DNA of 7,705 nt from IMG/VR virus record IMGVR_UViG_2690316318_000009, positions 1 to 7,705 of that record, one strand, 5' to 3'. Source of the stretch: a virus (lineage: Duplodnaviria; Heunggongvirae; Uroviricota; Caudoviricetes). This document shows positions 6,001 to 7,705 of the stretch, one piece after another (positions within the stretch are counted from its first letter, which is position 1; each line of letters begins with the position of its first letter). Position numbers: made by a program.

Positions 6001-7705
6001 GTGTGGTTGATGGTATGTTGATGATGTTGGATATCACACTTGAGATGGATTCGATTGTAATGGTATTTGATTAATATCATTTTTTTCAAAAGCGCGATAA
6101 AGAGAATAGCAGAGAATTATGAAATAATTGGGGTAAGTATGTTTAATAAGACAATTGTTTTAACTTTGCTAACATGTTTGTTTTGCTCTTCTGTCGCGGA
6201 TGCGAAGCGCGGTGGGCATAGGCGCTCATATCATCGTTCGCATACTTATCATTATAAAAATAATGAAGAGAGCAAACTAAGAACCTGCTCGGGAAGATAT
6301 GTTGATTATTATGGAGTTTGTGATGAAAAAATATGGAAAATAGTGAAAGTCCAAAACCTGTTACCACGAAAAAAAAGATACAAAAAGTAAGTGGTAAGGC
6401 ATCTAAAGTTGAAACTAGTTTATCTGACTCGCAAGTGAGAACCGTGTACCCACAGGAAAAGCCCAAACCTACTTGTGCTCCATTGTATATGGCTCACAAA
6501 CCTGGTTATACAAATTTGCCCATATGTGTTGATGGTCAATATTAATTACTTGGTTAGGTGTTTACGATCGTAAAAATCAGAGTATCCTGTTAAGAGTGGT
6601 TACTTCGCCACACAACTTAAACCCGCCTCTGAGCGGGTTTTGTCGTTTCTGAAGGATTTATATGAAAGAGATTAAAATTGCAGCACATCAATGTGTCTTA
6701 CCCGCTAGAATTCGATTTACATTTTCTACTTCTGGAGAAACTAAAGAAGAAGTGATTGAAAAGATGAGAATCGTCATCGATCAGCTTAGTAAAGACGAGG
6801 TCCATCTTGATCCATATGTACATCTTGAGAGTTATCTATCAGGCGTGAATATATCTTGCTCCCCCGCCTGATAGGTTAATTGTTTATTATTCCATTACCA
6901 TCTTGCCGATCTGTGCGGGAAGCGGGACAACATACTCCCAGAACGGTTCGTTAGAAGCGATGCCTGACCAGTACCAGATTGCTTTTGTGAAGATTATTGC
7001 TGCGTTATCTGTTAATGAATCAATGTCAAGAAGTCTCATATCACCACGGTGAATATTTGTATTATCACCTGCCAGTATTTCATAAATAGGTTGCGGCCCA
7101 TCGTGTTCACGATAATTTTCTCTAAAATAATTCGCATCCTCTATCTTTTCACAGGCGAATATTGACTGGTATCTGGATGGTTTTGTTGGGAACTGAAGCT
7201 GACGAACCAGTTCAACAATAAGCTCCATGAGATCAGTGCTGGTTAGGTCTCTTCTCGGAAACAGGTATCGTAAACCATGTTCAGCGATTTTGAAATCAAA
7301 CTTCGCCCCAATAGGACCATCAACAATGTAGCTATCAGTTACAGGCGGCACTATAGAAGAAAAATTCATTAATGTATTTGCATTGTATCTGCCTCTTCTG
7401 TCAGCAGAATAAAGCACTATGCCCATTTAACTCTCCTGATTTGATGTAGTTACTTTTGGCGATGTAACGATATCAAGCGCGAGGTTATACCGCCAGATTC
7501 TTAATCTGGCACTTCATCTGGCCCGGGTATGTACCGGTTTTTTTATTTAAGGCCGCTGACAGGTCCATTTAGTGCAACGTCTTTCCCCGTTTCCGCTCCT
7601 GGAATATTCGGGGATTTTTTATTCCCTCAATTTGCACCCGCGATATGTGCGAGGTGAGAGATGATGAAATGCCTCATAACCCAAATACCTGGCCGGACTG
7701 GCTGG

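Follow-up and report, generated by a model that had tools for sequence, protein, structure and literature searches.

Organisation of the locus

The 7,705-nt stretch of viral DNA analysed here (the window) comes from the nin-to-late-gene region of a lambdoid prophage. It raises the question of what is encoded by two overlapping reading frames directly downstream of its Q antiterminator gene: two genes, one gene whose expression is recoded or switched at an A run, or one gene that has been broken. The initial annotation had taken a single secreted small-protein gene to be split across a run of eight A residues, with a dnaX-like -1 ribosomal frameshift, transcriptional slippage, an A8-to-A9 on/off switch or a recent inactivating indel as possible explanations. 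The elements of the locus are the following.

Upstream of the Q gene: NinG and Ser/Thr phosphatase genes, and a minus-strand LpxR-family gene
5691-6074, plus strand: Q antiterminator gene, 127 aa (PF06530, Pfam E=8.7e-54), directly upstream of the small gene
6130-6133, plus strand: GGGG, a Shine-Dalgarno-like sequence 5 nt before the ATG at 6139, invariant in all aligned alleles
6139-6390, plus strand: ORF1, 83 aa (the truncated product of the A6 allele, see below)
6139-6204, plus strand: putative signal peptide coding region MFNKTIVLTLLTCLFCSSVADA, recognised by its sequence pattern, with predicted cleavage after A-D-A
6333-6545, plus strand: ORF2, 70 aa, in the -1 frame relative to ORF1, from its first ATG at 6333
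6369-6376, plus strand: A8 run, CGA AAA AAA AGA in the ORF1 frame, with the ORF1 stop (6388-6390) 14 nt later
6619-6645, plus strand: intrinsic terminator with an 8-bp GC-rich stem and a T-rich tail
Downstream of the small gene: a 69-aa ORF, then a minus-strand DUF2441 gene

The Q stop codon and the start of the small gene are 64 nt apart, both genes being on the plus strand, and a spacing of about 64-74 nt between Q and the small gene is kept in all related prophages examined. The same order, Q and then the small gene, recurs at many loci (L001-L008, L016-L017, L020-L024 and L034-L036). On the 5' side, comparison with other Q-bearing phages shows that homology to their Q genes ends near 6050-6058. 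On the 3' side, a conserved segment of 82 nt (6560-6641), with the intrinsic terminator at its end, is matched in 938 E. coli records and also in phiP27, PhiR40_1 and mEp460; in many lambdoid prophages this segment trails variable, quite different cargo 3' of Q. A consensus scan aimed at the late promoter PR' identified no plus-strand promoter in the intergenic regions 6075-6138 and 6546-6661, nor did comparison with other Q-bearing phages place PR', and Rfam (E <= 1) and tRNA scans of the whole window gave no match.

The basic description of the two reading frames holds. ORF1 encodes 83 residues, which begin like a signal peptide and include a stretch rich in His, Arg and Tyr, and the position of the A8 run, its phase and the ORF1 stop 14 nt further on are borne out by the sequence. 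ORF2 had been said to lack a convincing ribosome-binding site, and indeed no Shine-Dalgarno sequence precedes it, the bases 5' of its ATG being GTGATGAAAAAAT; nor does it have a signal peptide. The ORF2 frame is open from 6327, preceded by stops at 6321-6326, and a -1 shift anywhere in 6327-6387 would fuse the two frames. Two A runs lie in this overlap, an A6 run at 6326-6331 and the A8 run, the latter providing a slippery heptamer A AAA AAA at 6370-6376 in the ORF1 frame. Conceptual fusion of ORF1 and ORF2 at A8 yields the 135-aa product with four mature cysteines that had been foreseen. The exact 83-aa and 107-aa ORF1 products have no record in the protein collection. Runs of this kind also arise by chance: in mononucleotide shuffles of the 407-nt gene (34% A) an A8 run appears in about 4% and an A6 run in about 34%.

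A single gene broken in an upstream A run

Used as a query, the conceptual fusion retrieved a 135-aa protein of E. albertii (P0001; 90% identity, 100% coverage) and four diverged full-length relatives (P0002-P0005; 47-54% identity, 100% coverage), all of the latter encoded by single ORFs. The suggestion that both ORFs belong to one gene, as its two halves, is thus upheld, as the fusion has full-length homologs of 135 aa that are read from a single ORF and covered completely. The disagreement between the fusion and P0001 is confined to exactly the 14 residues between the A6 and A8 tracts. P0001 reads YYGVCDEK-NMENSESPKPVTTKKKIQK, with VTTKKKIQK at the A8 run, and follows the ORF2 frame from well before A8. 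The residues NMENSESPKPVTT, encoded in the ORF2 frame at 6330-6368 on the 5' side of A8, are homologous to family members, and their NSESPKP segment, between the two tracts, aligns with E-[DE]-P-K-P in distant homologs. The ORF1-frame residues IWKIVKVQNLLPR find no counterpart in any homolog in the protein alignment. Measured against intact P0001, residues 1-64 of ORF1 are authentic, comprising the signal peptide and the His/Arg/Tyr-rich two-Cys N-module, and residues 65-83 are an out-of-frame tail, IWKIVKVQNLLPRKKRYKK.

At the DNA level, the same sequence is found at ten E. albertii prophage loci, where it forms an uninterrupted 135-aa ORF. This intact set comprises the eight P0001-encoding loci L001-L008, which were aligned with window positions 6060-6680, together with L016 and L017. 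Two further elements of the window are defined by these comparisons.

6326-6331, plus strand: the lesion, A6 here but A7 in all intact alleles (a 1-nt deletion, from the DNA alignment and from tract counts in 19 sequences)
6327-6545, plus strand: the displaced 3' part of the gene in the ORF2 frame, consisting of the Lys-rich linker and the C-module and identical to P0001 residues 64-135

Within the gene (6139-6545), the window and the ten intact loci differ only once, by A6 versus A7, the intact loci reading GATG-AAAAAAA-TATGG at this site. In the alignment with L001-L008 the window has one indel in 621 aligned bases; substitutions occur at three positions, all outside the gene (6096, 6110 and 6628), and L007 has a 1-nt length difference in a T run. 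The A8 run, 38 nt downstream of the lesion, is A8 in 19 of the 19 sequences compared, and in intact alleles it forms part of the in-frame codons ACG AAA AAA AAG (T-K-K-K).

The split is a 1-nt loss in the upstream A7 run, without involvement of the A8 run. The proposal of a gene split across the A8 tract fails on this point, the only indel being in the upstream A6/A7 run, and tract-length variation among related prophages, for which a comparison at A8 had been proposed, is found instead at A6/A7, with A8 constant. Among the explanations offered at the outset, a recent inactivating indel was correct in kind (A7 to A6) but wrong in place, lying at 6326-6331 and not at A8. The two-ORF arrangement is confined to the A6 haplotype, and no homolog has it as its normal state.

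We conclude that 6139-6545 is very probably one 135-aa small-protein gene, carried as Q-adjacent cargo of a lambdoid prophage. The window allele is, with considerable confidence, an ordinary inherited frameshift allele of this single secreted-protein gene, produced by a heritable 1-nt deletion from A7 to A6 at 6326-6331.

A 36-aa 'lysine acyltransferase' ORF was considered as a possible second lesion and rejected, since both loci concerned, in complete E. albertii genomes (L016 and L017), are under-annotated intact alleles of the A7/A8 type.

Architecture, conservation and relatives of the encoded protein

The 135-aa protein is laid out as a predicted Sec signal peptide, a His/Arg/Tyr-rich N-module with two Cys residues, a disordered Lys-rich linker and a C-terminal Cys-loop module.

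6468-6545, plus strand: C-module, 25 residues plus stop, with an 18-residue Cys-Cys loop; the most conserved module of the family, with invariant alignment columns

The signal peptide region is conserved in homologs and appears as a helix at residues 3-18 in an AlphaFold2 model. This model, built from an 8-sequence alignment, has a mean pLDDT of 58, and only the C-module exceeds 80, a quality too low for fold comparison. Judging from the sequence, the Sec signal peptide would be cut after A-D-A, each module would contain one disulfide, and the location of the protein would be periplasmic or extracellular.

Comparison of the E. albertii-type gene with the E. coli-type gene described below gives a whole-gene dN/dS of about 0.12, with synonymous sites saturated. 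For the C-terminal 26 codons, again relative to the E. coli-type gene, pN is 0.066 versus a pS of 0.81. The intact gene is under purifying selection, which is strongest on the C-module. It is this module (6468-6542) that the A6 allele separates from the start codon and signal peptide.

Scans of the fused or intact protein with Pfam, NCBIfam, PHROGs and PADLOC assigned it to no family, and a sequence-profile search of the PDB returned nothing significant (best E = 0.93). A profile search of 1.84 billion representative proteins identified 21 relatives at E <= 1e-3, and several of the family representatives in that library resemble frameshift fragments. Two types can be distinguished by their N-modules. 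The His-rich N-module type was found only in Escherichia lambdoid prophages, each time right after a PF06530 Q gene. Besides the E. albertii-type gene it includes an E. coli-type homolog (P0003/P0032), found in Stx2e prophages and related prophages of porcine strains, which has the same architecture, 54% identity, and the same slot after a PF06530 Q gene. Its carriers are prophages of mostly porcine strains, in which stx2e follows a few genes further downstream. It likewise has a linker rich in A runs and recurrent 1-nt A-run frameshift alleles. It differs from the gene in the window by its prophage backbone (DUF968-RusA-Q ... methylase-tRNAs-stx2e) and by the position of its A runs, which are elsewhere, its frameshift alleles being independent events.

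The frameshift alleles of the E. coli-type gene are of several kinds. UMNF18 and P13-6 have a change from A6 to A7; E9 has A7 to A8 at the KKKI run, which is homologous to the A8 run of the window; ETEC4068 and ETEC4075 have A8 to A7; and ETEC1734 has AA to AAA. In the protein collection, alleles of the UMNF18/P13-6 type and of the E9 type are present on 34 and 19 contigs, respectively, compared with more than 300 contigs with intact forms. Family members are frequently met in a form frameshifted at an A run.

In the second family type, the same C-module is joined to a YdcA-like N-module (PF27300, PRK10040). These YdcA fusions (YdcA family PF27300 / PRK10040 / phrog_6000; P0006-P0008 and P0013) resemble the protein studied here in sharing the C-module after a Lys-rich linker, in having a signal peptide and in their length of about 130-137 aa. 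They differ in the N-module, which is a YdcA-like CSGSKGGISHC domain and not the His/Arg/Tyr-rich two-Cys module. Of these fusions, one was examined in its context, in Chimaeribacter, and it has no recognisable flanking phage genes, in contrast to the Q-adjacent slot here. An NCBIfam or PHROG match to YdcA was obtained for P0006-P0008 and for neither P0001 nor P0004. The occurrence of the C-module on two types of N-module indicates that the protein is modular.

Distribution of the A6 allele

Tract counts in 19 sequences gave A6 in nine and A7 in ten. The 70-aa product of ORF2 is on record from 13 contigs of different ENA/Logan samples, and all seven places examined among these contigs (L009-L015) have the A6/A8 combination, as does an IMG/VR sequence (L031) that is nearly identical to the window over 2036-7705. 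The A6 allele is thus present in at least eight independent assemblies besides the window (L009-L015 and L031). The recurrence of the same A6 run in independent assemblies shows that it is not an error of one assembly and that the allele is circulating. A point against simple inactivation is that the allele is common, being found on roughly 13 of the approximately 33 contigs with this gene type. An exact-pattern scan allowing variable A-run length found nothing in the species-representative genomes of GTDB or the metagenome contigs of JGI, and one match in IMG/VR (L031); at the megablast level, none of 5,426 complete E. coli genomes has the gene.

The A6 run is linked to flanking positions. 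In a SNP table of 16 sequences over about 1.8 kb, 6628T and 6696T occur in every A6 sequence that covers them (the window and L009-L011), and 6628G and 6696C in all eight A7 sequences; L016 and L017, which have A7 and were checked up to 6680, also have 6628G. Position 6110 is C in all A6 sequences, a variant shared among the A7 sequences by L005 only. This linkage points to one ancestral deletion and argues against reversible slipped-strand switching. The A6 allele carries no further disabling mutation, which would likewise speak against inactivation but is expected for a very recent event, the haplotypes differing by just 3-6 SNPs over 1.8 kb.

A phase-variable switch, in which slipped-strand mispairing at A6/A7 and at further A runs in the linker would alternate reversibly between an N-module-only and a two-module product, is accordingly considered unlikely. 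Several observations could be taken to speak for it: the A6/A7 length polymorphism separates near-identical alleles; 6 of the 23 complete genomes with the E. coli-type homolog have 1-nt indels, at four sites of which three are in A runs of 6-8; two of these frameshift alleles recur, on the 34 and 19 contigs mentioned above; and many of the family representatives in the library of 1.84 billion proteins look like frameshift fragments. However, A6 goes with T/T and A7 with G/C at 6628/6696 wherever these positions are covered, with no sign of movement back and forth. The tracts are short (6-8 nt) and lie at several sites instead of forming one long tract, reversion would need a slip back at the same tract, and tract positions are not conserved between lineages. 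Moreover, some of the complete genomes may carry long-read homopolymer errors, and neutral decay of dispensable prophage cargo would give the same pattern equally well.

The recurrent frameshifts of the E. coli-type gene fit decay of dispensable cargo at its most mutable sites, but could also be read as selected variability. The Lys-rich linker, with its several A6-A8 runs, may be a selected mutational switch acting at multiple sites, or the allele may be a leaky 'pseudo-pseudogene' in which A8 partly rescues the A6 lesion; we regard either as quite unlikely.

One-base homopolymer miscounts are the commonest assembly error, and the window and L031 do differ at another homopolymer, T7 versus T6 at 5246. 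An error of sequencing or assembly in the window itself, the real genome having A7 and an intact gene, is nevertheless very improbable, as A6 is found in at least eight other assemblies from ENA, Logan and IMG/VR, together with the linked 6628T/6696T wherever these are covered. An inherited deletion remains the reading that we prefer: intact single-ORF orthologs are under purifying selection, the allele differs from them by a single indel, a conserved domain is lost, and the lesion is real, as in a frameshift-inactivated allele.

The A8 run and recoding

Programmed -1 ribosomal frameshifting at A8, by analogy with dnaX, would yield the 83-aa and 135-aa products in a set ratio. The heptamer A AAA AAA does stand in the ORF1 frame inside the 6327-6387 overlap, but this reading has very little probability in view of the comparative data. 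The gene is one continuous ORF in the ten near-identical alleles and in every diverged homolog, A8 consists of in-frame Lys codons in the intact alleles, and a fusion made at A8 would substitute 14 authentic residues. In addition, the A tract is conserved among homologs neither in position nor in phase. No stimulatory RNA structure could be identified, the sequences folding no better than shuffles (z +0.45 after A6, and +1.78 and +0.47 after A8), and no Shine-Dalgarno-like motif is present in the 11 nt before A8, CTGTTACCACG.

The comparison with E. coli dnaX is instructive in this respect. Both sites are Lys-codon slippery heptamers, A AAA AAG in dnaX and A AAA AAA in the mutant frame here; the intact frame has the dnaX-like A AAA AAG, from which a shift to the -1 frame would meet a stop after seven codons. 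In contrast to dnaX, which has an upstream Shine-Dalgarno-like element and a downstream hairpin, the present site has neither; its heptamer is not conserved among homologs, and nor is a two-product organisation. The dnaX-like frameshift initially suggested for A8 does not stand, as stimulatory elements are lacking and intact alleles read A8 in frame.

A runs of 5-8 nt are found in every lineage of the family, at differing codons and in differing phases, and they track Lys codons, for which AAA is preferred over AAG. These runs are by-products of a Lys-rich linker in a gene of 37% GC, and not conserved signals. Programmed transcriptional slippage was rejected: the two runs reach only A6 and A8, homologs do not share the split, and the runs lie at different places in different lineages. 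With A8 invariant in 19 alleles, neither the slippage nor the A8-to-A9 on/off switch that had been envisaged at this run finds a basis.

The locus bears some resemblance to the 'pseudo-pseudogenes' of Baranov et al. (2005, PMC1088944), in which a one-nucleotide change in an A run divides a reading frame that close relatives retain whole. As in those genes, a nearby A run inside the overlap could in principle restore the frame at the level of the RNA or the ribosome. The difference is that in pseudo-pseudogenes A8 is lengthened to a slippage-prone A9 (PMC1088944), whereas here A7 has lost one A to become A6, and its neighbour is no longer than A8. Selection against slippage is evident at runs of about 9 A/T in many bacterial genomes, and A8 has been described as a 'non-slippery pattern' (PMC1088944), from which weak rescue is to be expected. 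Spontaneous -1 frameshifting in vivo is of the order of 1e-4 to 1e-5 (PMC9307594).

Predicted consequences and implications

Slippage of replication in the homopolymer is the most likely origin of the loss of one A from the A7 run. A ribosome starting at the ATG at 6139 would leave the authentic frame after Lys64, add 19 unrelated residues and stop at 6388-6390. The predicted product of the A6 allele is an 83-aa precursor with the signal peptide and N-module, but without linker and C-module. The ORF2 frame would be an untranslated remnant of the 3' half of the gene, having no ribosome-binding site or export signal of its own.

The A8 run, three Lys codons of the linker, could suppress the lesion weakly at most, and without having been selected to do so. 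A -1 slip of tRNA-Lys on A AAA AAA, or one A inserted by RNA polymerase, could restore the C-module, and the product rescued at A8 would have 135 aa with 14 altered linker residues, probably at low efficiency. Low-level rescue may occur at the A8 or the A6 run; at A8 this would be adventitious suppression and not design. We infer that the intact protein is secreted and that the A6 allele has lost its function, any leakiness being of the kind just outlined.

This loss of function may really be a change of function, as the truncated product retains the signal peptide and N-module, and stand-alone N-modules exist in related YdcA-type proteins. The truncated allele would still export its N-module, and 'inactivated' should strictly be taken to mean 'lacking the conserved C-module'.

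For annotation, the locus should be entered as a single 135-aa gene frameshifted at 6326-6331, and neither as two genes nor as a recoding site; in some E. albertii genomes just a 36-aa tail of the intact gene is annotated. As a candidate for recoding the locus fails, and what it carries is a routine homopolymer frameshift allele. If a multi-site switch or leaky rescue did operate after all, lysogens could vary between the N-module alone and the full secreted protein with both N- and C-modules. The gene itself belongs to a very small, unnamed family of two-module proteins, predicted to be secreted, with an unusually conserved C-terminal Cys loop, lodged right after the Q antiterminator gene.

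Frameshift alleles of the E. coli-type homolog

A homolog of the small gene (window 6139-6545), here called the E. coli-type homolog, was identified directly downstream of Q at loci L018 and L025-L029; the prophages that carry it reside mostly in porcine strains (Stx2e/ETEC). This homolog is frameshifted by 1-nt indels in six of the 23 complete genomes, at four sites that are all different, three of which lie in A runs of 6-8 nt. In the protein collection, 34 contigs carry one of these E. coli-type frameshift alleles and 19 carry another.

Annotation and reading frame of the intact E. 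albertii alleles

In E. albertii genome records (e.g. CP045690) the only annotation of the small gene is a short ORF at its 3' end:

Window 6435-6545 (7001-7111 in both L016 and L017, two intact E. albertii loci), 36-aa tail ORF annotated as 'lysine acyltransferase'

These same records (L016 and L017) contain the whole 135-aa ORF unbroken, with A7 and A8 runs, and the 36-aa ORF is an annotation artefact.

In the frame of the intact allele (window 6368-6377; 6229-6240 in L001, a further E. albertii locus), the A8 run constitutes a classical A AAA AAG heptamer (ACG AAA AAA AAG), at which a -1 slip would lead to a stop seven codons further on (KDTKSKW*). The likeness to dnaX lies in the geometry of this heptamer and in the early stop in the -1 frame. 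No stimulatory elements were found at the heptamer of the intact allele, nor is the heptamer conserved across homologs.

Neighbouring genes and the conserved terminator segment

Several other features of the window surround the small gene:

4170-5129, - strand, LpxR-family lipid A deacylase gene
6560-6645, conserved 82-nt segment, with an intrinsic terminator as its 3' end
6662-6871, + strand, 69-aa ORF of unknown function (phrog_11414)
6887-7426, - strand, convergent DUF2441 gene (phrog_5663)

The LpxR-family gene is reverse-strand cargo between a phosphatase gene and the YlcG/Q genes. Prophage copies with 98.9% identity to it are present in many E. coli genomes, O157:H7 and O55:H7 among them, but the window's neighbouring module of Q and the small gene is absent from complete E. 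coli genomes. At intergenic position 5246 the window has T7 and the otherwise near-identical IMG/VR contig L031 has T6, a further difference in homopolymer length. The phrog_11414 ORF and the DUF2441 gene are constant companions of the small gene in E. albertii-type prophages, where the pair follows the terminator and precedes the holin gene.

At 90-98% conservation, the 82-nt segment recurs across some 938 E. coli records as well as the phages phiP27, PhiR40_1, mEp460 and cdtI, always 3' of the variable cargo slot that comes after Q. What fills this slot is the small gene in the window, L22 (409 aa) in phiP27 and, in PhiR40_1, a reverse-strand ORF. Late-promoter or antitermination signals may be located within the segment.

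The C-terminal Cys-loop module

Only 21 relatives were found among the 1.84 billion representative proteins searched. The Cys-loop C-terminal module (window 6468-6542) is shared with proteins P0006-P0008 and P0013, the N-terminal half of which is a YdcA-like domain (PF27300/PRK10040). This architecture suggests that modules have been shuffled around a Lys-rich linker.
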